DNA of 64,000 bases from NCBI GenBank assembly GCA_018650645.1, contig JABIFP010000005.1:35486-99485 (forward strand). Direction: 5' to 3'. Below are positions 31,608 to 47,986 of the stretch, in pieces. Both the position numbers and the translations under genes were made by a program. Within the stretch, counting starts at the first letter, position 1. Each line of letters starts with the position of its first letter. This DNA comes from Candidatus Magasanikiibacteriota bacterium. Its GTDB lineage: Bacteria; Patescibacteriota; Patescibacteriia; Magasanikbacterales; UBA922. Under the pieces are notes generated by a model that was not told the origin of the DNA, did not search any database, and saw only the letters and a program-made list of their open reading frames with translations.

Positions 31608-33572
31608 TTATTTTGTAATAGTTTTTACTTGTTTGGCAATGTGCTTTGCGCTAATGCCGGCTGCGTCATACAGGTCGGCTGCAGTGCCAGATAATTGATA
31701 ATGATCTACGCCGAGAGCAATATGTTTTTTCACACTTACACCTTTATCCTGAAGCATACGAGCAATTTGAGAAGCGTACCCAGAATGCGTATTGTGATCT
31801 TCAACAGTAATGAGTTGTTTTGTCTTTTTAATAGAGTTTAACAGTGCGTTTCCAAACTTCTTTGGTGATGTCATAATCACCAGCTCAACACTGAGTTTTG
31901 GTGATGTTTTTTTAAGGGATTCCCAAGCCTGCAGGGCTTCAATAACCATCGGACCACTCGCGGCTATAGTTACATCTGTTCCTTTGCGTAGTACGTGGCA
32001 ATCGCCATACGTATAGGTGTAATCTTTTCCAAATAGTGGTTTACCTTGCGCTGACGTAAGTACCGGAATTTTGTGTCTACCCATGCGCATGTATACATTA
32101 CCATAATGAGATGCGCTATAGCGAACCATTGCATCACATTGGTTTGGGTCAGCTGGTTCCATGACCATAGTATTGAATAATCCGAGCATTGAACCCATAT
32201 CATCAATTGCCTGATGGGTTGGTCCATCTTCTCCAACAGAAAGACCACAATGAGTGGCTACCATTTTAACATTTGCTTGATTCAAATCATTTACGCGTGC
32301 CTGATCTTTTGCGCGGCTTGTCATGAATGCGCCAAAGGTAGAGCAAAATGGGAGCATACCGTGAAGGCTTAATCCTCCAGAGCAAGAGACCATGTGTTGT
32401 TCAGCTACGCCAACATCAATATGTCTTTCAGGGTAGTGTTCTTTTACGCCGCTTGTTTTTACTGAATCTGCAACATCAGCTGTAAGCGCAATTACATTGG
32501 CATTTCGTTTTGCTAGATCGAGTAATGCGTTTCCGTAGGCGCTTCTGCAATCTGTGAGAGTGTCTGCGCTATAGGTCTTTCGTTGACCAGTCTTAACCTT
32601 TGGCATGGGTGTACCAAGTGGTAAAAATACTGGATCCTCTGGTTTCCATCTACCTTTTCCTACGCTAGAAAGTGCTTTTCGTTCTTGCCCAGATAATGTA
32701 AGCGATTCGAGCATAGTATCAGCAACTTCAGGTTTTGGTGCGTTGCCGTGCCAGGTTGCACGTTTCAGTCTACCTTCTTTCTCCATTCCTTTAATGCCTT
32801 TTCCCATAATGGTTTTTGCAAGCAGAAGAATGGGTTTTCCATTTTGTCTATACGCGCGCGAAAGTGCCCGCCACATGGCGGTGATATTATGGCCGTCTAC
32901 TTCAATAACTTTCCAGCCAGCTGCTTCCCATAGTTTTGCAGGGGAAATTGGCATAATCGATTTTAACGATCCACTCAGCTGCACACTGTTGTAATCCATG
33001 AAGACAATAAAATTATCAAGCTTGTATTTGGCCGCAAAGTTCATCATTTCGTATACCTGTCCTTCTTGCGATTCGCCATCTCCAATAAGAGCAAATACAT
33101 GTTTTTTTGAGTTGCGTAATTTTTCTGCAAGTGCAAAACCGGCGGCAGCACTCACTCCTGCACCAAGTGGGCCTGTACCAAAGTCTACTCCTGGTACATG
33201 TCTGGTAACGTGGCCTTCAAATTGAGAACCTATGTGTCTAAACGAATCGATAACTTCCTGTTTTTTTACATAGCCAAGCTGTGCAAGTACAGCATATACC
33301 GCCGGAGAAATATGACCATTTGATACCACAACTTTCTCTCCAGTTCTGCTGATGATTTGGGTATATAAAAGAGAAAGGTAATCAATACAACCAGCCGAGC
33401 CTCCTGGGTGACCACTTTGCGATTGGCGTAGCATGGAAATAATGGTGTGACGGCAATCTTTGGCAAACGCGTGTATTCCTTCAACGCGCTTTTTTGTGAG
33501 CGGCTTGAATTGCATAGAAGTATTTATGAATGATTGTATTGTAGCATATCGAGAGGTTTCTCTCTTGTGCAA
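31608..33572 (-). CDS. tkt: Transketolase
   Basis: TPP-binding N-terminus (HPGGSAGCIDYLSLLYT...SNGHISPAVYAVL...GPLGAGVSAAAGFALAE), pyrimidine-binding and C-terminal domains. Confidence 0.9.
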   Translation of the reverse strand: MHKRETSRYATIQSFINTSMQFKPLTKKRVEGIHAFAKDCRHTIISMLRQSQSGHPGGSAGCIDYLSLLYTQIISRTGEKVVVSNGHISPAVYAVLAQLGYVKKQEVIDSFRHIGSQFEGHVTRHVPGVDFGTGPLGAGVSAAAGFALAEKLRNSKKHVFALIGDGESQEGQVYEMMNFAAKYKLDNFIVFMDYNSVQLSGSLKSIMPISPAKLWEAAGWKVIEVDGHNITAMWRALSRAYRQNGKPILLLAKTIMGKGIKGMEKEGRLKRATWHGNAPKPEVADTMLESLTLSGQERKALSSVGKGRWKPEDPVFLPLGTPMPKVKTGQRKTYSADTLTDCRSAYGNALLDLAKRNANVIALTADVADSVKTSGVKEHYPERHIDVGVAEQHMVSCSGGLSLHGMLPFCSTFGAFMTSRAKDQARVNDLNQANVKMVATHCGLSVGEDGPTHQAIDDMGSMLGLFNTMVMEPADPNQCDAMVRYSASHYGNVYMRMGRHKIPVLTSAQGKPLFGKDYTYTYGDCHVLRKGTDVTIAASGPMVIEALQAWESLKKTSPKLSVELVIMTSPKKFGNALLNSIKKTKQLITVEDHNTHSGYASQIARMLQDKGVSVKKHIALGVDHYQLSGTAADLYDAAGISAKHIAKQVKTITK

Positions 33573-33618
33573 AAGTGATATCTGTGATATTACATGTGCA
33601 TCGCAATCGGGCGATTGA

Positions 33619-33990
33619 ATGGAGAGGGCAATGGGAGAGATGTTTGCCGAGTTCGGGCGGCTTCACTATGAGGTCCGGGAGTTGCGGCGGGATGTGCTGT
33701 ATATGCTTCGTCAGCTGGATGTACGCGGGTACACCACGCCGCGGGGTTTGGCACGCAAGTTTCGCAGCTGTGCGCGCGGTGCTGCGCGTCTGCACTTCGG
33801 TATGCGCTGGCTTTCGGTGGAACAGCTCCATCGCGGGACCGTGTTTTACGTTCCGTACATTGGGACATGCGTGTATCGCGGAGAATGTTCTGCGATGGTG
33901 GTTCACAGCGTGCTGTGGAAGTACCATCACGGTGATGTTGTTCGGCTGCCTGGTTACCAGCAGGTCAGGACCTTGCTGCCGCTGCCGTAG
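33619..33990 (+). CDS. Small hypothetical protein (GC-rich island 1, ORF A)
   Basis: High GC3 codon bias; GGAGAGGG lies 5-8 nt before the second ATG; no family recognised. Confidence 0.3.
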   Translation: MERAMGEMFAEFGRLHYEVRELRRDVLYMLRQLDVRGYTTPRGLARKFRSCARGAARLHFGMRWLSVEQLHRGTVFYVPYIGTCVYRGECSAMVVHSVLWKYHHGDVVRLPGYQQVRTLLPLP

Positions 33991-34125
33991 CCTACACGGC
34001 TGAAGATGAAAGGGGGAGGCGGCCAATGGCCGCAGGAGGGATGGGCGCTCGTAGGAGCGCCTTTTCTTTTTGCATTATTCTTTCTCTATGCTATTCTTTT
34101 CGCAGGATGTGACAGGGAGGAGAAG

Positions 34126-34548
34126 ATGTCCAATCACAGGGTGACGATTCGGCTTGTAGAAAAGCCGCGGAAGGGGCACACGCAGGTCCTGATCGAGGAT
34201 GGGTCGATTCGCGTCGACCCGGAAGTGCCGCCGTTGTATGTGCAGCAGGGAAGAGCCTTGCTCGCGGAGGTGTCGGTGCAAGTGCCAAAGCCGCATCAGG
34301 CCGAGTTTGGGCATGTAGCCGTTTCCTGCATCCAGTGGGGCATGGCAGCTCAGCTGGAAGGCGTGCAGGATGGGGCTCCAAACACTCCGGCTTTCTATTC
34401 CGTAGAGATGCGGGATGTCTGGGTTGCTGCCGGTAAGGCATTGGAGGAAAATAGGCAGCGCCGCGAGCGGGAGGCTTTGCAGCGAGGCCGTGAGCATCAT
34501 GCCTTAGTTTGCGCAGTGCGGGCAGAGCGCAATGGGAATGAGCCCTGA
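34126..34548 (+). CDS. Small hypothetical protein (GC-rich island 1, ORF B)
   Basis: Strong SD GGGAGGAGAAG before ATG MSNHRVTIRLVEKP...; high GC3. Confidence 0.3.
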   Translation: MSNHRVTIRLVEKPRKGHTQVLIEDGSIRVDPEVPPLYVQQGRALLAEVSVQVPKPHQAEFGHVAVSCIQWGMAAQLEGVQDGAPNTPAFYSVEMRDVWVAAGKALEENRQRREREALQRGREHHALVCAVRAERNGNEP

Positions 34549-34561
34549 GCATCAACCAAAA

Positions 34562-34581
34562 GGGCGACCCTCGGGTCGCCC
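34562..34581 (-). terminator. Perfect GC hairpin GGGCGACCC-tc-GGGTCGCCC; likely terminator for the minus-strand 34589..35781 genes
   Basis: 9-bp perfect stem; a T-run (ttttggttg) follows on the minus strand. Confidence 0.5.
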
Positions 34582-34588
34582 TACCAAC

Positions 34589-34921
34589 TTATAATAATGT
34601 ACGTACGTTTTCTGGTGGCCTTCCAAGGACCGCTTTTTTGTTATCTTTAATCACGATGGGCCGCTCGAGTAATATTGGATGTTGCGAAACAAGTTTCCGC
34701 AAAGCTTTTCCGGTAAGCGGCTTGTATGCGGTTTCTTTTTTTCGCACAAAGTTAGAGAGATCTGTTCCGAGAAGTATTTCGAGCTTAGCCAGCTCAGTTT
34801 CTGTTACCCCATCCTGCAAATAAAGAATAATTTCTGGAGTAATGCCTTCTGCTTCTAAAAGCGCAAGTGTTTCTCTGCTTTTTTTGCATCTAGGATTATG
34901 ATATATGCGGTATGAAGCCAT
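34589..34921 (-). CDS. ArsC/Spx/YffB-family thioredoxin-fold protein
   Basis: MASYRIYHNPRCKKSRETLALLEAEGI...LERPIV is the ArsC-family signature with the CxxS/R motif. Confidence 0.7.
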   Translation of the reverse strand: MASYRIYHNPRCKKSRETLALLEAEGITPEIILYLQDGVTETELAKLEILLGTDLSNFVRKKETAYKPLTGKALRKLVSQHPILLERPIVIKDNKKAVLGRPPENVRTLL

Positions 34922-36059: not shown

Positions 36060-37091
36060 TTAAAAATCAGTATTAGCAAGATGATCGTGAGCCTTTGGGG
36101 TGACCTTGCGTCCTCTGGGAGTTCGCTCAAGCATTCCCATTTGCAATAAAAACGGTTCATAGATGGTTTCTACCGTATCCATGTCTTCTGCAATGGCTGC
36201 GGCAAGGGTGCTGAGCCCAACGGGGCCTCCCTGAAACGAATCGATAATAGTTTTCAGAATCTTTCTATCAATGTCGTCTAATCCGTGCGCATCAACGCGC
36301 AGCATAGTAAGGGCAGTTTGTGCTACTTCTTGATCAATTATACCATTAGCACGCACCTGCGCATAGTCTCTGACGCGTTTTAAGAGCCTGTTAGCAATTC
36401 TAGGGGTCCTGCGGGCGCTATTCGCTATCTGCTCAGCTGCTACCTCGTGCATATCTACTTCAAGCAGCGCGGCATTGCGTTTTACAATCGAGTGCATATC
36501 AACGGCATCGTAATATTCAAGGTGGAAGACATGTCCAAATCGATCTCTAAGGGGAGAAGAGAGCAGATTGAGCCTTGTTGTAGCGCCAATAAGGGTAAAT
36601 GGCTCAACTGGCATACGCAAGGTGCGCGCTGCAGGGCCTTTTCCTACAATAATATCAATGGCAAAATCCTCCATTGCCGTATAGAGGACTTCTTCAATAG
36701 TTTTATTCATTCTGTGGATTTCATCTATAAAGAGAACGTCTCCAGCAGAGAGGTTCGATAAGATTGCGGCGAGATCTCCTACTCGGTCTAATGCTGGACC
36801 CGCAGTAATACGTATATTGGCATTCATTTCTTTGGCAATGATGTTTGCCAGGGTTGTTTTTCCAAGCCCTGGGTTGCCGTATAGCAGCACATGTTCGAGT
36901 GGCTCAGTTCTTTTTTGTGCAGCTTCAATAGAAATGATAAGTGGCATCTTTATGTGAGACTGGCCAACAAACTGATCCAGTCGTTGTGGGCGTAGAGTAA
37001 CCTCAAGGACGTCCTCAGTGGTAGTTGCTGACGGTTCTACAATACGCGGCTCGCTTGGCGCTTCATCATCTATAAATGTGTATTCGCTCAT
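36060..37091 (-). CDS. ruvB: Holliday junction branch-migration ATPase RuvB
   Basis: Walker [16 protein letters not shown], sensor motifs and the RuvB winged-helix C-terminus. Confidence 0.9.
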
Positions 37092-41295: not shown

Positions 41296-41511
41296 TTGCG
41301 TACTCCTGTTGGCTCTAGATATTCTGGGGCTGCAGAAGGACACAATTGTATCGGGGGTAGAGGAGTGATAGTGAGATTACTCTGAGGGATTGTTCTTGTG
41401 CCTCTCTTGTCGTGGTAAGTCCACTCGTTAGTTCGGGTGGGCTTTTTGTTTGACGGATATTCGTTTAATCAGTACTCTGTAATAGCATTTGCTGATGGAG
41501 GAGAAAATCAG

Positions 41512-41736
41512 ATGGAAATGCAGGCGATTGTGAAGTACGAGCACCTGTCGGTGCTCAAAGGGATGCTCGCTGATGCGAAGACGCTTGAGGCGTTGCGCAA
41601 ACTCGCGGGTGTTTCGCTGCAGGAACTGCTCACTGGCATGGCATGGTTCAAACTTGAGGCATCGTCGCAGGAAGACGAGCGACGGGACTTGGGCAGCGTG
41701 ACTCTGGGCGAGCTCAGGCAGATGCTCGCAGAGTAG
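41512..41736 (+). CDS. Small hypothetical protein (GC-rich island 2, ORF A, ~74 aa)
   Basis: GGAGGAG SD 9 nt upstream of the ATG; high GC relative to flanks; no family recognised. Confidence 0.3.
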   Translation: MEMQAIVKYEHLSVLKGMLADAKTLEALRKLAGVSLQELLTGMAWFKLEASSQEDERRDLGSVTLGELRQMLAE

Positions 41737-41824
41737 GGCTAAGTGGACCGAACCAACCTATCCACCGTTGACGAGAGGGCAACGATCCTGTATTCTCTTG
41801 TGACGAACACAAGGGGGACATTGG

Positions 41825-42061
41825 GTGTTTGAAATGCGAGTACATGCTCGCGATCCATATCAGGTAAAGATTGTGGTGGGGACGGCCGGGCCGCTCGGTA
41901 GCAATTGGGAGCCTGATGTGACGCAAGAAGAGGACGGTGTTGTTGGCACGATTCGTATTACTGACCGCCGCCTTGCCAGGCAGTTTCTGCAGGATGCCAT
42001 GGTGGTAGCCCGTGCGCTGCCGAGTCAGATCACCGTCATCGGCGACCTGTCGCTGAACTAA
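41825..42061 (+). CDS. Small hypothetical protein (GC-rich island 2, ORF B, ~78 aa)
   Basis: AGGGGGA SD 7 nt before GTG 41825 (an ATG lies at 41834); high GC3. Confidence 0.3.
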   Translation: MFEMRVHARDPYQVKIVVGTAGPLGSNWEPDVTQEEDGVVGTIRITDRRLARQFLQDAMVVARALPSQITVIGDLSLN

Positions 42062-42099
42062 CTTCCCAATACAATGGGGCATTGAAGGAGGTATTGGGA

Positions 42100-42137
42100 A
42101 CAAACAAAAAAGACGCATGTGTGCGTCTTTTTTGTTT
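42100..42137. terminator. Bidirectional rho-independent terminator (AAGACGCA-tgtg-TGCGTCTT flanked by A and T tracts)
   Basis: Lies between island 2 (+) and the end of the Nudix gene (-); near-identical to the terminator at 51268..51302. Confidence 0.75.
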
Positions 42138-42717
42138 ATGTAGAGAAAAGATTTTTTAACGATTCTTTTTTCTCTGTATCAACTTGCGCTTCCCAGAAGT
42201 AACGCTGTATTTCTTTTTCGTAAAACTGTGGTTCTGTTCCAATCTTGAGTAATTCTTCAAAACTTACGGGATAGAGTGAAATTTTTTCACCAGCATCGAG
42301 GTTTAATTCAGCTACATTTGTAATCCCCTTTGCAATAAAGGTGTAAACGGCCCATTCAATCTTTGATATTGGTTGTTGTGCGTCCAAGAGAATATATTCT
42401 TTTGCGCTGTATCCGGTTTCTTCAAGAAGCTCTCGTTTTGCTGCTGTGAGAATATCTTCCCCTGCATCAACGCGACCACCTGCAGCACCAATGAAGGGCG
42501 CTTTTCCGGGCTGTTCTTGTTTTGTTAACAATATCTTTCCATCATCTGTAATTGCAAAAACAATCACGGTGTCTGGTCGCTTTAGTTTCTCAAATATCGT
42601 CGTTGAGCCATCATACATCTTTTGCTCCCATTGATACACATCAAATATTGCACCAGAGAAAACCTTTTTTGCATGTGCTGGAAGTGGTTGTGAGGATTTT
42701 GGTCGTGGAATGTCCAT
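42136..42717 (-). CDS. Nudix hydrolase (ADP-ribose pyrophosphatase-like)
   Basis: Nudix box GGRVDAGEDILTAAKRELLEETG; start set at MDIPRP (ATG at 42715-42717) because the longer ORF would run through the tRNA-Leu gene. Confidence 0.8.
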   Translation of the reverse strand: MDIPRPKSSQPLPAHAKKVFSGAIFDVYQWEQKMYDGSTTIFEKLKRPDTVIVFAITDDGKILLTKQEQPGKAPFIGAAGGRVDAGEDILTAAKRELLEETGYSAKEYILLDAQQPISKIEWAVYTFIAKGITNVAELNLDAGEKISLYPVSFEELLKIGTEPQFYEKEIQRYFWEAQVDTEKKESLKNLFST

Positions 42718-42756
42718 GTGTTTTTTTTGCTCGCCTGCCGAAGCTTTAGCGTAGGC

Positions 42757-42843
42757 TGGTGCCGTGGGCGGGACTCGAACCCGCGCGAGGTTTCCCTCAA
42801 GGGATTTTAAGTCCCTCGTGTCTACCAACTCCACCACCACGGC
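42757..42843 (-). tRNA. tRNA-Leu (anticodon TAA), type II with long variable arm, CCA encoded
   Basis: Minus-strand sequence GCCGTGG...CCACGGC-A-CCA; anticodon loop CTTAAAA; T-loop GGTTCGAGTCC; 87 nt. Confidence 0.8.
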
Positions 42844-42895
42844 GTGAAGTAGGGACAATATAGCAGAAAGAGGTAACTCAGGCAAGAGGGCGGTG

Positions 42896-42910
42896 GATTG
42901 ACAGAAAGAG
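42896..42910 (+). promoter_or_regulatory. Promoter-like motif GATTGACAGAAAGAG (-35 TTGACA), 17-nt spacer, -10 TTAAGT, upstream of island 3 ORF
   Basis: The identical 15-mer recurs at 44549..44563 in the same position relative to another GC-rich small ORF; followed by SD TAAGGAGG and ATG 42954. Confidence 0.5.
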
Positions 42911-42953
42911 GAGGGTTTGGTTAAGTTACTATAGAAACCATAAGGAGGTTCTG

Positions 42954-43322
42954 ATGAGAAATGCTCTGGTAGACGATAAGACGTTGCCGCTGTACGATCA
43001 AAGTGATGTGGCCATGTTTGGCTGCCCGCTCTGTGAGTGTAGTGATGCGTCGTACCGGGTTGTGGATGTGTGGGAAGTTGCGGGCAACCCAATTGTCCAG
43101 GTGCTTGTGCACCTCGATGCGGAGTGCTCGGGGCGGTTCCGTCAGCGTTGCGATGCAATGTTTTGTCTGGAGTCCCCGCGGACACACCCATGCGGGATTT
43201 GCTCCAGCAGGGATTTCGATCATCCTGACGACGCGGAGCTGCCGCGGCCCACGCCACCACGATCGTCTAGGCACAGGCACACGGGCTCTCCGCCCAAGGT
43301 TCCTGCCGTCCTTGATGACTAG
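42954..43322 (+). CDS. Small Cys/His-rich hypothetical protein (GC-rich island 3)
   Basis: Perfect SD (TAAGGAGGTT, 6 nt spacer); CPLCEC...HLDAEC...HPCGIC suggests a zinc-ribbon-like arrangement; Pro/Arg-rich tail. Confidence 0.4.
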   Translation: MRNALVDDKTLPLYDQSDVAMFGCPLCECSDASYRVVDVWEVAGNPIVQVLVHLDAECSGRFRQRCDAMFCLESPRTHPCGICSSRDFDHPDDAELPRPTPPRSSRHRHTGSPPKVPAVLDD

Positions 43323-43402
43323 TTCTGGCGGCGTTCGGTTCTTCGCGCGTCGCCCTGAGTATATATACGTATATTCAGGGAGGAGGATGCGAAGAATCGA
43401 AT

Positions 43403-43440
43403 AAAAAAAAGAGACTGCATAGCGCAGTCTCTTTTCGTTT
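43403..43440. terminator. Bidirectional rho-independent terminator (AGAGACTGC-atagc-GCAGTCTCT)
   Basis: Perfect 9-bp stem flanked by AAAAAAAA and TTTTCGTTT; lies between island 3 (+) and the end of the permease gene (-). Confidence 0.75.
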
Positions 43441-43446
43441 GTAATA

Positions 43447-44505
43447 TTAATTGTGTTGCAGTTCTTTATTGTAATAATGATCGTACATGGTAACAACTGC
43501 AAGGAAGAGTGACATAAGCACCGGCCCAATGACGAATCCAGAAATACCAAAGATCATGAGCCCACCAAGAGTAGAAAAGAGTACTAATAGCGGATGCATT
43601 TGTGTGTCTTTTCCAATAAGTGGTGGTCTGAGTAAATTATCAATGTTACTGATAATTACTGCGCCCACAATAAGAATGGTAAGTCCTTGCCATGTGCTGC
43701 CTGTTGCCAGCATGATCACACCAGCAGGGAACCATACAACAAACGATCCAATTGCTGGAATAATAGAAAGAATCGTCATAACTACTCCCCAAATCAGTAC
43801 CCCTTCTACGCCGGTAATGGCAAAGAGAATTGCACCAAGCACACCCTGAATTCCGCCAATAATAACGGTACTTTTCAGTGTTGCTCTTGCTGTAGAAGTA
43901 AATCGACTATAGAGCATTTTTTCATACGTGTCTCCAAGAGGAGAGAGGTGCATGAGCCTATCAAGCATGCGCTTTCCGTCTTTGAGGAAATAGAAGAGGG
44001 AATAGAGCATGAGGAAAGAAAGGAACAGGAACCGTAGTGAATTGGATGTGAGTGCTTTGACACTGGCAAAGATTGTAACTGAAAGCGATTTTGCTGCGCC
44101 CGCTGCATATTCTTGCCATTGCGCTTGAATCATATCGAATACCGGAGCTGCAAATGATTGCTGCAGCCTGGTGGTAAGTTCTGCTGCGCTTCCAAACATC
44201 TCGCCTGAAGCAATTTGTGTATAAAGGACTGCCGATTCTTGCACTAAGAGAAGTGAAAGCAAAATAAGTGGCATAAACAGGAGCACAATCACGAGTAGCA
44301 CAGTAATTGCTGCACTGGCTGATTTGATTTTGATATGTTTATCAATCCACAAATATAGTGGATAGAACATAACCGCGACAACGGCCGCCCAAAAAATTGG
44401 ATAGGCAAATGGACGAAGCAGATACAGGGCCATGAGTCCAAGTAGGATGATAGTACCTACAAAGAACCCAGATTGCATCCGCGCAAAGCTAATGCTTTCT
44501 TTCAT
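43447..44505 (-). CDS. AI-2E family (PerM/UPF0118) transporter
   Basis: 8 TM helices and the family-typical FAYPIFWAAVVAVMFYPLY...IGGIQGVLGAILFAITG...WFPAGV pattern; start set at MKESISF (ATG at 44503-44505) to avoid the extension that overlaps island 4. Confidence 0.75.
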   Translation of the reverse strand: MKESISFARMQSGFFVGTIILLGLMALYLLRPFAYPIFWAAVVAVMFYPLYLWIDKHIKIKSASAAITVLLVIVLLFMPLILLSLLLVQESAVLYTQIASGEMFGSAAELTTRLQQSFAAPVFDMIQAQWQEYAAGAAKSLSVTIFASVKALTSNSLRFLFLSFLMLYSLFYFLKDGKRMLDRLMHLSPLGDTYEKMLYSRFTSTARATLKSTVIIGGIQGVLGAILFAITGVEGVLIWGVVMTILSIIPAIGSFVVWFPAGVIMLATGSTWQGLTILIVGAVIISNIDNLLRPPLIGKDTQMHPLLVLFSTLGGLMIFGISGFVIGPVLMSLFLAVVTMYDHYYNKELQHN

Positions 44506-44548
44506 AGGGTGAAGATAAGAATATTGATGTGAGTATAGCACGGATGGG

Positions 44549-44563
44549 AGATTGACAGAAAGA
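44549..44563 (+). promoter_or_regulatory. Promoter-like motif GATTGACAGAAAGAG (second copy), 17-nt spacer, -10 TAGGTT
   Basis: Identical 15-mer to 42896..42910; precedes the island 4 ORF. Confidence 0.5.
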
Positions 44564-44593
44564 GTAATTAGTGGTAGGTTCAGGGTGCGTTTC

Positions 44594-45115
44594 ATGAAGC
44601 CCAGAAGGGAGGGCAGAATGCTGAAGAGTTTGAACAGGAAGAGGAACGGGGAGTACTCACCACCAGTGATGGGGGTCCTTATTCTGCTTGTAGGGGTGTT
44701 TGCCTTCATGCTCGGGAGGGAGCAGGGCTTTTCAGAGACCAAAACTCCGGAGCAGAAGCTCACGCGGCAACGTGCTGTCGGCTACCATCGTCTCAACAGC
44801 GGACTGGAGAATGGCTCCTGCCGCAAGAAGAGCGACTGGCGGCGCTTTCCGGGCGAGTGCATCACCGTATGCACAACGACGTCCGGCATGGCCATGGTCA
44901 CCGTTCACGAAGCAGATGACTGCAAGAACGGACAGTTCGACGGGCTGCGTCCGACACAACTGCAGATGTTGCAGACCAACCTGAACGAGTGCGGCATCTT
45001 CAACAGGTGGGCAACGGACAACCAGTGTCGGCTGGTCTGCCCGCTCGGTCGTGCCCGCTTTAGCCTTCCGCAGCACATGTGCGACAAGTTCGCAGATCAG
45101 CCACCGGAAGGATGA
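44594..45115 (+). CDS. Small membrane-anchored/secreted Cys-rich hypothetical protein (GC-rich island 4)
   Basis: N-terminal TM/signal-anchor PVMGVLILLVGVFAFMLG followed by a domain with 10 Cys; alternative start ATG 44618 is preceded by SD AGGGAGGG; high GC3. Confidence 0.4.
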   Translation: MKPRREGRMLKSLNRKRNGEYSPPVMGVLILLVGVFAFMLGREQGFSETKTPEQKLTRQRAVGYHRLNSGLENGSCRKKSDWRRFPGECITVCTTTSGMAMVTVHEADDCKNGQFDGLRPTQLQMLQTNLNECGIFNRWATDNQCRLVCPLGRARFSLPQHMCDKFADQPPEG

Positions 45116-45247
45116 TCACAACCTCTTGAGTCGGGCGCCCAAGGCGTCCGGCTCAACCAATATATGCATCCCCATGCATTATTTTTTTTGTTTCCATATA
45201 GCGTAGGGCATGGTATACTTTTCTCGTATATTTTTGCCTGTTTTTTT

Positions 45248-46243
45248 ATGAAAGAACCAACATATCGCTCAGCCCTTTCTCATGGGTGGAATATTTTCTG
45301 GGACCACAAGCTATTGTGGCTATTTGGTTTCTTTGCTGCCTTTTTAGGGCAAATGGGACTCCTCGATATAATTACACAATTGAATTTGGCGCCAAAGCAA
45401 TACACCATGTATGAACCGATTTCGAATCTTCCAGAGATTATTGCATTTATTATTGCAACAGTGAAAGCACTTCCATGGGATGCGGGAAGTATGGTGTGGT
45501 CACTGTGGTTATTGATTTTCTTTGGTGGAGCAGCGCTGTTATTAGTATTCGTATCAGTCACTTCACAAGGGGCATTGATTCACGGCATTGGGCAATCACT
45601 TAAGGGTCGTAAAAAGAAACATATCGATGTATCAAAAGCATGGCATGCTGGAACCGGACATTTTTGGCGCCTATTCTTTTTACATATTGCAAAAAAGGTA
45701 TCGCTATTTACCGTAATGGTAATTGCCGGGCTTGCAGCATACAGTTATGGTATGAGCGGCGCACCACTTGATGCTGGATTATTTTATGCAGCACTCATTT
45801 TGGCAGTAGCAGTCGGTGTAATCACTTCATTCTTGCTCATTTATGCAGCAGGGTATGTCGTTATTGAAGAGTATTCGTTTGGTGAAGCTATTAAGGCAGC
45901 CTGGGCACTCTTTAAAGATCACTGGCTCGTCTCTTTAGAAGTGGCTGCGATTATGGTGCTTGTGAATATTCTGTTTGCTATTGTCTCTGCCGCAGTATTC
46001 CTATTGTTTGTTGGAGAAATGGCTATCATTTTGGCAGGATCACTTGTACTTAGTGCGGGTGCGCTGTATACCGGTATGCTGATTTTTGGTTCATTACTAT
46101 TTGCGACATGTTTGGCATTCTTTGGAAGCTTGCTGACTGTATTTTCAACATCAACATGGATGTATTTATTTGCAACAATGCATAAAAAAGGAATGAAGAG
46201 TAGAATTCATCATACGTTTGCCCGCCTGCTCAAACGTCGTTAA
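45248..46243 (+). CDS. Polytopic membrane protein (paralog of 60088..60909)
   Basis: About 7 TM helices; N-terminal SHGWNIFWDHK...FGFFAAFLG resembles DSWNLCKKN...IGALLGVS of the other copy. Confidence 0.55.
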   Translation: MKEPTYRSALSHGWNIFWDHKLLWLFGFFAAFLGQMGLLDIITQLNLAPKQYTMYEPISNLPEIIAFIIATVKALPWDAGSMVWSLWLLIFFGGAALLLVFVSVTSQGALIHGIGQSLKGRKKKHIDVSKAWHAGTGHFWRLFFLHIAKKVSLFTVMVIAGLAAYSYGMSGAPLDAGLFYAALILAVAVGVITSFLLIYAAGYVVIEEYSFGEAIKAAWALFKDHWLVSLEVAAIMVLVNILFAIVSAAVFLLFVGEMAIILAGSLVLSAGALYTGMLIFGSLLFATCLAFFGSLLTVFSTSTWMYLFATMHKKGMKSRIHHTFARLLKRR

Positions 46244-46255
46244 TCTGAACGTAAT

Positions 46256-47986
46256 ATGCCAGGACATCAGTCTATTGAAGATCTCATTGGAGGAAAAACG
46301 AAAGCTGCACCATCTAATGCCGCGCAAGATCCGACTACTTCAGGAAAAGTATCGGCTGCATTTTCAAAGAAGATGGGTGAAATTGAAAATAAAGAAACAG
46401 AACTTGAAACAGAACGATCTGCAAGCATAACAGGTGCGCCATATATTGATTTGATTAAGTTTCCTGTTAGTCAGTACGCATTAAAACAATTGCCATTAGA
46501 GCGTGCAAAAGAATTGCAGGCTGTTTGTTTTTACGCAACACAAGAAGAAGTGCGCATTGGTGCCATCGATCCACAAGATCCGGATGTGATTGCGCTTGGA
46601 GAATCTATTGCCCATGAAATCGGTGCTAATCAGGAACTTTATACTATTTCTGAACGAAGTCTAAATAGAATTATTGAATTATATAAAACCCTTCCAGACA
46701 TTAAACCAATTTCAAAAGATGTAGAGATTGATGGGGAAGAACTAGCGCGCATTCAAGAAAGCGTTACGGACTTTGAATCATTTCAAGGACTGTTTGATGA
46801 AGCGAGCACTACCGATTTGGTAACATATATTATGGGTGGGGCGCTGAAGCTTGGAACAAGTGATGTTCATATTGAAGCAGAAGAAAATGGTATTGTTGTA
46901 CGTTTCCGTTTAGATGGAATATTACAAGACGCGGCTATTCTGCCAAAAGCGACGTTTAAAAAATTGGTATCAAGATTGAAATTAGTATCAGGATTAAAAA
47001 TTAACATCACCACAAAGCCGCAAGATGGTCGGTTTACGGTAAAAATGCCTGACGGAGATGTGGATGTGCGTGTTTCTACCATTCCAACAATTTACGGAGA
47101 AAGTATTGTAATGCGTTTGCTTGTTCAAAACGAGCAGATTATGACGCTTGAGTCGTTAGGGCTTCGTGGACGTGCATATGATCAGCTCAAAACAGAAATC
47201 GATAGACCAAATGGAATGATTGTGACAACGGGGCCTACAGGAAGTGGTAAAACAACGTCTTTGTACGCAATTATGCGTATGCTTAATAAGCCGGGTGTAA
47301 AAATTATTACCTTAGAAGATCCTGTTGAGTATAAAATGGAAGGAGTAAATCAAAGTCAGATTGATCACAGTAAAGATTATACGTTTGCAAAAGGGCTTCG
47401 CTCTATGCTTCGTCAAGATCCGGATATTGCCATGGTTGGGGAAATCCGTGATATTGAAACTGCAGAAATTGCTATTCAGGCATCTTTGACTGGGCATCTT
47501 ATCCTTTCAACAATCCATACAAACGATGCGTTTGGAGCGATTCCACGGTTTATGTCTATGGGGGTAAAGCCATTTTTGCTTGCGCCTGCACTAAACTGTG
47601 TAATTGGGCAGCGATTGGTAAGAAAGCTTTGTACTCTGTGTAAAGAAGCTTCTCCACTAGAAGCAAAATTACAAGAAAAGGTAAACACCGTCATGGCAGA
47701 GTTACCAGAACCTGAAAAATCAGAGGTGGCAGCTATGGAGCAAGTATTTTATGCACCAAAAGGATGTGATAAGTGTAATGAAGGGTATAAAGGACGATTA
47801 GGAATCTATGAAATTTTTGTTGTAAATGAAGCGATTGAAAAAGCGGTATTAGATGGACAGGTCGCAGAATATGATATTCGCAGGATTGCTATTGAAAACG
47901 GAACCGTTACTATGGTGCAAGATGGTATTATTAAGGCGTTGCTAGGAGACACATCGATTGAAGAGGTATACCGTGTGACTGAATAA
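46256..47986 (+). CDS. GspE/PilB-family secretion ATPase (type II secretion / type IV pilus assembly)
   Basis: GSPII_E N-domain, Walker A GPTGSGKTT, Asp and His boxes, and the tetracysteine motif CTLC...CDKC. Confidence 0.85.
   Translation: MPGHQSIEDLIGGKTKAAPSNAAQDPTTSGKVSAAFSKKMGEIENKETELETERSASITGAPYIDLIKFPVSQYALKQLPLERAKELQAVCFYATQEEVRIGAIDPQDPDVIALGESIAHEIGANQELYTISERSLNRIIELYKTLPDIKPISKDVEIDGEELARIQESVTDFESFQGLFDEASTTDLVTYIMGGALKLGTSDVHIEAEENGIVVRFRLDGILQDAAILPKATFKKLVSRLKLVSGLKINITTKPQDGRFTVKMPDGDVDVRVSTIPTIYGESIVMRLLVQNEQIMTLESLGLRGRAYDQLKTEIDRPNGMIVTTGPTGSGKTTSLYAIMRMLNKPGVKIITLEDPVEYKMEGVNQSQIDHSKDYTFAKGLRSMLRQDPDIAMVGEIRDIETAEIAIQASLTGHLILSTIHTNDAFGAIPRFMSMGVKPFLLAPALNCVIGQRLVRKLCTLCKEASPLEAKLQEKVNTVMAELPEPEKSEVAAMEQVFYAPKGCDKCNEGYKGRLGIYEIFVVNEAIEKAVLDGQVAEYDIRRIAIENGTVTMVQDGIIKALLGDTSIEEVYRVTE

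Follow-up and report, generated by a model that had tools for sequence, protein, structure and literature searches.

A GC-rich genomic islet with two orphan reading frames between tkt and an ArsC-family gene in a Candidatus Magasanikiibacteriota genome

We examined a 64,000-nucleotide (nt) stretch of DNA from a Candidatus Magasanikiibacteriota bacterium (assembly GCA_018650645.1, contig JABIFP010000005.1, positions 35,486 to 99,485 of the forward strand), hereafter the window, in whose own coordinates all positions are given. The subject is a GC-rich patch at 33600-34585, termed island 1, which lies between the transketolase gene tkt and an ArsC-family gene and carries two small open reading frames (ORFs) on the plus strand, ORF A and ORF B. 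The GC content of island 1 is 59.0%, compared to 42.7% for the whole 64-kb window, and windows of the same size taken outside the islands have a mean GC fraction of 0.420 (standard deviation 0.023, maximum 0.485), which places island 1, at 0.590, at a z of about +7. Upon scanning with 500-nt windows, GC contents above 52% were confined to exactly four segments, namely 33401-34801, 41401-42101, 42701-43501 and 44401-45301. The first-pass annotation had described a GC-rich intergenic patch of about 1 kb, one of four such islands inside 12 kb, and both descriptions are borne out by the sliding-window analysis and by the positions of the flanking genes. Both flanking genes are host genes on the minus strand. 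On one side, tkt (31608-33515) encodes 635 amino acids (aa) with the Pfam domains Transketolase_N/pyr/C, has a GC content at third codon positions (GC3) of 0.335 and no Shine-Dalgarno (SD) motif upstream; an alternative TTG start at 33572 would give 654 aa. On the other side, arsC (34589-34921) encodes 110 aa (PF03960) with a GC3 of 0.336 and a host-like composition. Between tkt and ORF A, which diverge from each other, the intergenic region (33516-33618) is AT-rich, with 36.9% GC.

ORF A (33619-33990, plus strand) encodes a basic (isoelectric point 10), arginine-rich orphan protein of 123 aa when read from ATG 33619 and ends in a TAG stop. Its start is more likely ATG 33631, giving 119 aa, because the SD-like motif GGAGAGGG (33621-33628), whose GGAG stands 6 nt before ATG 33631, falls inside the version that starts at 33619. 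ORF B (34126-34548, plus strand) encodes an orphan protein of 140 aa, ends in TGA and has the SD motif GGGAGGAG (34115-34122) 3 nt before its ATG. The two plus-strand ORFs with SD motifs and high GC3 that had been predicted thus both exist, with the correction that ORF A probably begins at 33631 and not at 33619. A longer form of ORF B, from ATG 34006, encodes 180 aa and is the choice of the JGI gene caller; by hydropathy, its 40 extra residues form a hydrophobic, lipobox-like N-terminus (…FLFALFFLYAILFAGC; …ILFAGC). We favour the 140-aa form because the 40-residue extension overlaps a terminator-like element and is without an SD motif. It was also observed that the T-run of this element and the AT-rich spacer after it supply the lipobox-like segment when translated in the frame of ORF B.

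The terminator-like element was found by terminator scan 3' of ORF A (34014-34073, plus strand), where hairpins fold at −36.3 kcal/mol (z −3.05) and the stem at 34043-34062 is followed by TTTTCTTTTT. The spacer between the two ORFs (34063-34112, plus strand) is AT-rich, with 32% GC, and contains weak promoter-like hexamers (TTGCAT-16-TATTCT). Beyond ORF B lies a perfect 9-bp GC-rich hairpin (34561-34582), a candidate bidirectional terminator common to ORF B on the plus strand and arsC on the minus strand, with a folding energy of −20.4 kcal/mol, a z of −5.05 on the plus and −3.48 on the minus strand, and a terminator-scan match on the minus strand. The promoter-like hexamers before ORF A, located by eye, are weak as well (TTGTGC-17-TATTAC with a TG extension), and a consensus promoter scan found no strong plus-strand promoter in island 1. 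The candidate expression signals of island 1 are SD motifs and terminator-like hairpins, the promoters being represented by weak hexamer matches only.

Next, we investigated whether ORFs A and B have the composition of genes. The phase of the three-base periodicity is constant along both, and the GC fractions at the three codon positions are 0.66/0.44/0.68 in ORF A (G at first positions, G1, 0.33; A at third positions, A3, 0.06) and 0.71/0.43/0.67 in ORF B (G1 0.43, G3 0.46). The difference between the lower of GC1 and GC3 on the one hand and GC2 on the other is 0.23-0.24 for the two ORFs, a value that no random open stretch of 100 codons or more attained among the 992 drawn from dinucleotide shuffles of island 1. 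G exceeds C at first positions on the plus strand only, and, in a manner untypical of genes, the first positions of the antisense frames are rich in C. Because this codon periodicity is unmatched among the random open stretches, we conclude that ORFs A and B are protein-coding sequence, or were until recently, in agreement with the earlier proposal of genuine coding sequence. Further ORFs of 92-181 aa occur in other frames on both strands of island 1, and stop-like trinucleotides are depleted there (39 versus 55 ± 5). This depletion is mostly explained by the constraint on the plus frame together with the avoidance of codons ending in A, so that the ORFs previously noted in all frames are largely by-products, except for a residual excess at ORF A, whose alternative frames are open nearly throughout (122 of 123 codons in frame +1) and exceed the expectation from codon permutation (sum over frames, P < 0.001). 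Single-sequence AlphaFold2 (AF2) modelling of ORF A gave a predicted local distance difference test score (pLDDT) of 37, and the model of ORF B, with a pLDDT of 46, is confident only for a C-terminal helix at residues 95-137; both models were of too low a quality to support a fold search and were uninformative on structure.

The coding parts of the islands differ from the host genes in three respects. GC3 is 0.67-0.68 in the ORFs of island 1, which prefer codons ending in G and T, and about 0.33 in host genes, and the third codon positions of islands 1-3 are alike (G3 0.37-0.46, A3 0.06-0.17). In the host set, consisting of the 51 ORFs of at least 150 aa in the window, an SD match of at least 5 nt before the first start was found in 4 of 51, which equals the random background of 6-7%, whereas a G-rich SD motif precedes all six island ORFs (GGAGAGGG, GGGAGGAG, GGAGGAG, GGGGGA, TAAGGAGG and GGGAGGG). 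Stop codons in the host set are TAA in 43, TAG in 6 and TGA in 2 cases, compared to TAG in 3, TGA in 2 and TAA in 1 of the six island ORFs. A published survey detected no anti-SD motif in roughly half of the 16S rRNAs of Parcubacteria (PMC9297842); no 16S rRNA, whose 3' end would hold the anti-SD, was found in the window or in the loci fetched from relatives.

Upon searching Pfam, PHROG, PADLOC and NCBIfam, nothing meaningful was obtained for any of the island ORFs, antisense ORFs included, and among about 15 billion proteins there was no credible homologue of ORFs A and B. In a word-seeded HMMER search of 5.8 billion protein clusters both matched only themselves, which confirms their status as ORFans. 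An exhaustive phmmer search of ORF B against 1.84 billion representatives returned, apart from ORF B itself, two giant repeat proteins (P0003 and P0004), which were treated as noise because their E-values sum five to six repeats. A kinship of ORF B with the Listeria-Bacteroides repeat (Flg_new-like) was accordingly rejected: the E-value of 3.6e-8 for P0003 arises from five summed repeats, a single repeat aligns to ORF B with a score of 35 bits (32% identity over 95 aa), too low for significance in a search of 1.8e9 proteins, and ORF B has no Pfam match. Furthermore, tblastn of the six island ORFs against phage and plasmid collections gave no match, and the IMG/VR viral contigs contained none to ORFs A and B. 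A toxin-antitoxin or anti-phage defence system was also considered and rejected, there being no PADLOC, Pfam or NCBIfam match and the two ORFs lying 135 nt apart with a terminator-like hairpin between them.

We likewise searched for traces of mobility. Integrase and transposase Pfam domains were absent from the neighbourhood genes, and terminal inverted or flanking direct repeats at island 1 were limited to short ones at chance level, an 11-nt repeat pair falling within the coding regions of tkt and arsC. A scan for tRNA and tmRNA genes gave nothing inside island 1, and the closest tRNA gene is 8 kb away. The absence of mobility genes and terminal repeats reported at first reading is therefore upheld, and a classical genomic island or integrative element was rejected for want of an integrase, a transposase, flanking direct repeats and a nearby tRNA gene.

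When the 180-aa product of ORF B was looked up by exact match, 22 contigs were retrieved, drawn from several samples (among the source samples are JGI 3300022902, 3300022888 and 3300024259) and assembled by JGI, ENA and Logan. Each of them keeps the gene order tkt-A-B-arsC-DUF1294-bPH-ruvB, the longest, from JGI, measuring 606-614 kb, and the 1.3 kb around island 1 are 100% identical across all fetched contigs. One ENA contig (ERZ4200986; L006 in our numbering) has 36 mismatches, all in its last 150 nt and inside ruvB (window equivalent 36660-36804), which probably reflect a chimeric contig end with another species and not strain variation.

When examining more distant genomes, we found that the RuvB encoded in the window shares no more than 74% identity with those of metagenome-assembled genomes (MAGs) of Candidatus Magasanikbacteria, and the nearest relatives available for comparing the site share only 56-66% tkt identity with the window. 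The string ruvB-86aa-bPH-DUF1294 is conserved across Magasanikbacteria. In five relatives (L097, L101, L104, L107 and L119; tkt identity 56-64%), tkt comes immediately after DUF1294, and two others have different content at this site. The first of these (L090, tkt 66% identical) has arsC, an unrelated 111-aa membrane ORF and tkt. The second (L094, tkt 63% identical) has, between DUF1294 and tkt, an unrelated 205-aa orphan ORF with several transmembrane segments (L094:4443-5060, minus strand), oriented like ORFs A and B, with up to 60% GC in a 39% GC genome and a TrmB regulator adjoining. Island 1 is thus absent from this site in the syntenic relatives compared, a point that had been thought worth checking. 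Because syntenic relatives have DUF1294 abutting tkt or other genes there, the slot is variable, and island 1 is a lineage-specific filling of it.

GC-rich, codon-periodic ORFs proved to be common in the Magasanikbacteria and Uhrbacteria contigs fetched (L010-L121). No Pfam family was found in 9 of the 10 tested, no similarity was detected among the GC-rich ORFs of relatives or between them and the window ORFs, and tblastn of nine of these orphan ORFs against phages gave nothing. An SD motif leads 18 of 31 GC-rich ORFs of relatives, compared to 4.8 expected from their own interiors and to 116 of 943 (12%) host-like ORFs in the same relatives (Fisher test, p-value 5e-9). Lipoprotein or transmembrane signals occur in GC-rich ORFs of two contigs (L012 and L094). 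In the relative with the 111-aa membrane ORF, a GC-rich patch has genes for thymidine kinase (PF00265; L090:1513-2088) and for a protein resembling dUTPase (PF00692; L090:2271-2855), both on the minus strand. These are recognisable nucleotide-metabolism genes of a typically mobile sort, and therefore at least some GC-rich patches are conventional acquisitions. Separately, large GC-rich orphan ORFs stand just upstream of ruvB in two contigs (L016:8758-9768, minus strand, 336 aa; L019:9038-9847, minus strand, 269 aa). Because they are dissimilar to each other, this site looks like another recurrent slot.

The remaining three islands of the window also carry plus-strand ORFs. Island 2 (41437-42061) has two orphan ORFs with a codon signature like that of island 1: ORF 2a (41437/41512-41736), with the SD motif GGAGGAG before ATG 41512, and ORF 2b (41825-42061). 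A protein from an NCBI MAG labelled Candidatus Magasanikbacteria is identical to an island 2 ORF; proteins MBT4153175.1 and MBT4153176.1 (locus tags HOE53_) belong to the NCBI MAG. This match and the RuvB comparison place the organism within the candidate phyla radiation (CPR, Patescibacteria). Island 3 contains ORF 3a (42954-43322), which encodes a cysteine-rich protein of 122 aa with CxxC motifs and has a perfect SD motif, TAAGGAGG. ORF 4a of island 4 (44618-45115) encodes 165 aa from ATG 44618, behind the SD motif GGGAGGG, and its product is predicted to have an N-terminal signal-anchor-like helix followed by a cysteine-rich domain. Several features were noted around these islands. A perfect 16-bp bidirectional terminator (42102-42137) is common to ORF 2b and a NUDIX gene. 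Island 3 adjoins a tRNA-Leu(UAA) gene (42757-42843, minus strand), and a consensus TTGACA −35 box at 42899-42904 lies upstream of ORF 3a and faces it. Just 3' of ORF 3a there is a near-perfect palindrome of about 70 nt (43333-43402, plus strand) around TATATATACGTATAT, which includes GGGAGGAGGATG and a 5-codon ORF; together with a bidirectional terminator at 43404-43435, the segment 43323-43440 folds at −60.7 kcal/mol (z −9.1). ORF 4a is followed by a 14-bp GC hairpin without a T-run (45126-45156), and 1.1 kb past island 4 lies a type II/IV secretion-system ATPase gene (PF00437, PilB-like; 46256-47986, plus strand), flanked by genes for membrane proteins without a Pfam family. This ATPase may be part of a pilus or DNA-uptake machinery.

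Taking these results together, we consider it probable, with a good deal of reserve, that island 1 was acquired horizontally from a GC-richer, SD-using donor, as a small islet that has no integrase and comprises two moron-like cassettes. A foreign origin is favoured because the island departs from the host in composition, in its use of SD motifs and in its choice of stop codons, and it is from composition and signals that we infer horizontal transfer. Each cassette would consist of an ORF with its own G-rich SD motif and a strong hairpin at its end, the distal hairpin being shared with arsC as a putative bidirectional terminator. The cassettes would be divergent from tkt and convergent on the ruvB...DUF1294-arsC string, an orientation in which no host transcription unit should be disrupted. 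Their coding parts would retain donor traits, that is a GC3 of about 0.68, codons ending in G and T, TAG and TGA stops and SD-led starts. Once the DNA had been taken up, integration at a tolerated hotspot may have taken place by illegitimate recombination or by way of homology in the flanks. The ORF products may be accessory proteins, and a possible association with the envelope is hinted at by the lipobox-like segment that ORF B has in its 180-aa form, by the signal anchor and cysteine-rich domain of ORF 4a and by the signals in the ORFs of L012 and L094.

Several points weigh against this reading. Neither an integration scar, an att site nor a mobility gene was found at island 1, and no donor homologue of ORF A or B came up in the clusters, phages, plasmids or IMG/VR contigs searched, nor one of ORF B among the 1.84 billion representatives; had the transfer been recent and its source a sampled lineage, relatives should still be recognisable. 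The earlier suggestion of acquisition from a high-GC donor is thus supported by non-host composition, SD motifs and stop usage, but the homology searches yield no donor. SD-like strings are also commoner by chance in G-rich sequence, occurring at 15% of island 1 positions, and some of the island ORF starts were picked with the SD motif in view. Additionally, the identical copies offer no variation on which purifying selection could be tested by the ratio of nonsynonymous to synonymous substitutions (dN/dS), and four same-strand insertions within 12 kb are more clustered than independent random events would predict.

The lack of donor homologues keeps three rival explanations alive. Island 1 could be recent foreign DNA that is now an inert relic, possibly a single gene of about 309 codons split by an in-frame TAG, since ORF A is in frame with ORF B in its 180-aa form and a single stop (TAG 33988-33990) interrupts the stretch between 33619 and 34548. 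AF2 predicted no fold for either protein, and if the host, like about half of Parcubacteria (PMC9297842), had no anti-SD, the SD motifs would be useless relics. We regard such a relic as rather unlikely: exactly between the two ORFs stand a strong terminator-like hairpin followed by a T-run, a spacer rich in AT and a strong SD motif, an arrangement that two units fit better, and CPR genomes are small and deletion-prone, yet four islands persist here and are fixed in 22 of 22 contigs. Alternatively, ORFs A and B might be native, lineage-specific genes, fast-evolving or arisen de novo, that owe their GC content and SD motifs to an intrinsic constraint; a GC-rich, structured mRNA, for example, might be unable to use the AT-rich, SD-independent initiation of the host and so need an SD motif. 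The empty donor searches among proteins, phages and plasmids suit such an origin, as do the AT-rich, host-like regulatory spacers beside coding parts that alone are GC-rich, the signal or transmembrane segments in several GC-rich ORFs, and the unrelated GC-rich orphans in the same slots of relatives, which would be expected of fast-evolving surface genes. No known process, however, lifts the GC3 of a single gene from 0.33 to 0.68 beside neighbours at 0.33; the stop-codon usage is unlike that of the host, five syntenic relatives have nothing in the slot, the genes that fill it elsewhere have no detectable similarity, and the thymidine kinase and dUTPase of L090 are ordinary transferable genes that are likewise GC-rich. 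Small genes under an unusual compositional constraint, which the first-pass annotation had offered as a second possibility, are for the reasons of GC3, stop usage and empty slots a weakened and, in our judgement, unlikely explanation.

A structured non-coding RNA gene, with the ORFs as mere by-products of GC content, would agree with the intergenic position of a GC-rich patch in an AT-richer genome and with the stop-free stretches in several frames, and the whole island indeed folds about 3 standard deviations better than shuffled sequences. This z of about −3 is however equal on both strands and comes largely from the terminator hairpins, Rfam has no family for island 1 at the gathering threshold or at E-values up to 5, and the phase-constant three-base periodicity, never matched by random open stretches, favours coding. 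This explanation is therefore disfavoured, and we hold it to be very improbable. Even less credence, practically none, is given to an assembly chimera or a contaminant join. The GC content does shift abruptly at both borders, but the borders fall at gene starts and terminators rather than at arbitrary points, and the same junctions recur in independent JGI, ENA (with MEGAHIT- and SPAdes-type names) and Logan assemblies, in contigs of up to 614 kb, so that the concern over mis-assembly raised at the outset is settled for practical purposes.

The islet of acquired cassettes that we prefer resembles several known systems in part. Chromosomal hotspots of horizontal gene transfer are reportedly flanked by core genes and without mobility genes, as Oliveira et al. 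are said to have described in 2017. Like such hotspots and genomic islets, island 1 is a short, atypical, integrase-less accessory segment between core genes, in a slot that is filled differently or left empty in relatives. It differs in being GC-richer than its host and only 1 kb long, in having no donor or pangenome relatives among the sequences found, and in being one of four segments in separate neighbouring intergenic regions on one strand. Acquired and orphan genes are usually AT-richer than the host genome, and classical bacterial ORFans of the Daubin and Ochman type are short, lineage-specific and AT-rich relative to the genome. The island genes are similarly short, lineage-restricted and without homologues, whereas they are 17 points GC-richer and have translation and stop signals that are not host-like. 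Phage morons, a concept of Hendrix and Juhala, are independent promoter-gene-terminator units of deviant GC content inserted between genes. The likeness lies in a small ORF equipped with a candidate translation signal and a terminator-like hairpin, in deviant GC content and in undisrupted neighbours; island 1, in contrast, sits on a cellular chromosome and has housekeeping genes (tkt, ruvB, nrdAB) around it, phage genes are absent from its vicinity, and neither PHROG nor tblastn against phages gave a match. Finally, integron cassettes and clusters of attC sites lacking integron integrases (CALINs) share with the islands small, mostly orphan, co-oriented ORFs, each with a hairpin after it. The island ORFs are however not head-to-tail, have housekeeping genes between them and no IntI, and, unlike integron cassettes, carry their own SD motifs and in some cases their own promoter-like boxes. 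An integron cassette was rejected since the hairpins, by reading of the sequence, are without R''/R' (RYYYAAC/GTTRRRY) cores and neither an array nor an integrase is present.

Considered as a single locus, island 1 is a genomic islet of orphan genes, which is a known kind; its GC anomaly is real, and two orphan genes of a CPR genome are added to those known. Of greatest interest among the by-products is how GC-rich orphans led by an SD motif stand out from SD-less host genes across a CPR lineage, in which GC3, SD usage and stop choice provide three independent marks of foreign or atypical genes. If the contrast of 18 of 31 versus 116 of 943 holds genome-wide, it would offer a simple means of cataloguing acquired genes in Patescibacteria, donors or hosts could be searched for by composition, and it could be asked whether such genes can be translated by ribosomes with a reduced or absent anti-SD. 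A much bolder idea, which we regard as a long shot, is that CPR bacteria of the Magasanikbacteria and Uhrbacteria type harbour an undescribed, lineage-wide class of GC-rich, SD-led orphan cassettes, placed in a few slots of otherwise SD-less genomes and captured from, or tuned to, the GC-rich SD-using hosts of these episymbionts, for instance via type-IV-pilus uptake. Were such a class to exist, the hosts could be traced by the genomic fingerprint that the composition and signals of its members provide, and proteins for interaction with the hosts could be found among its products.

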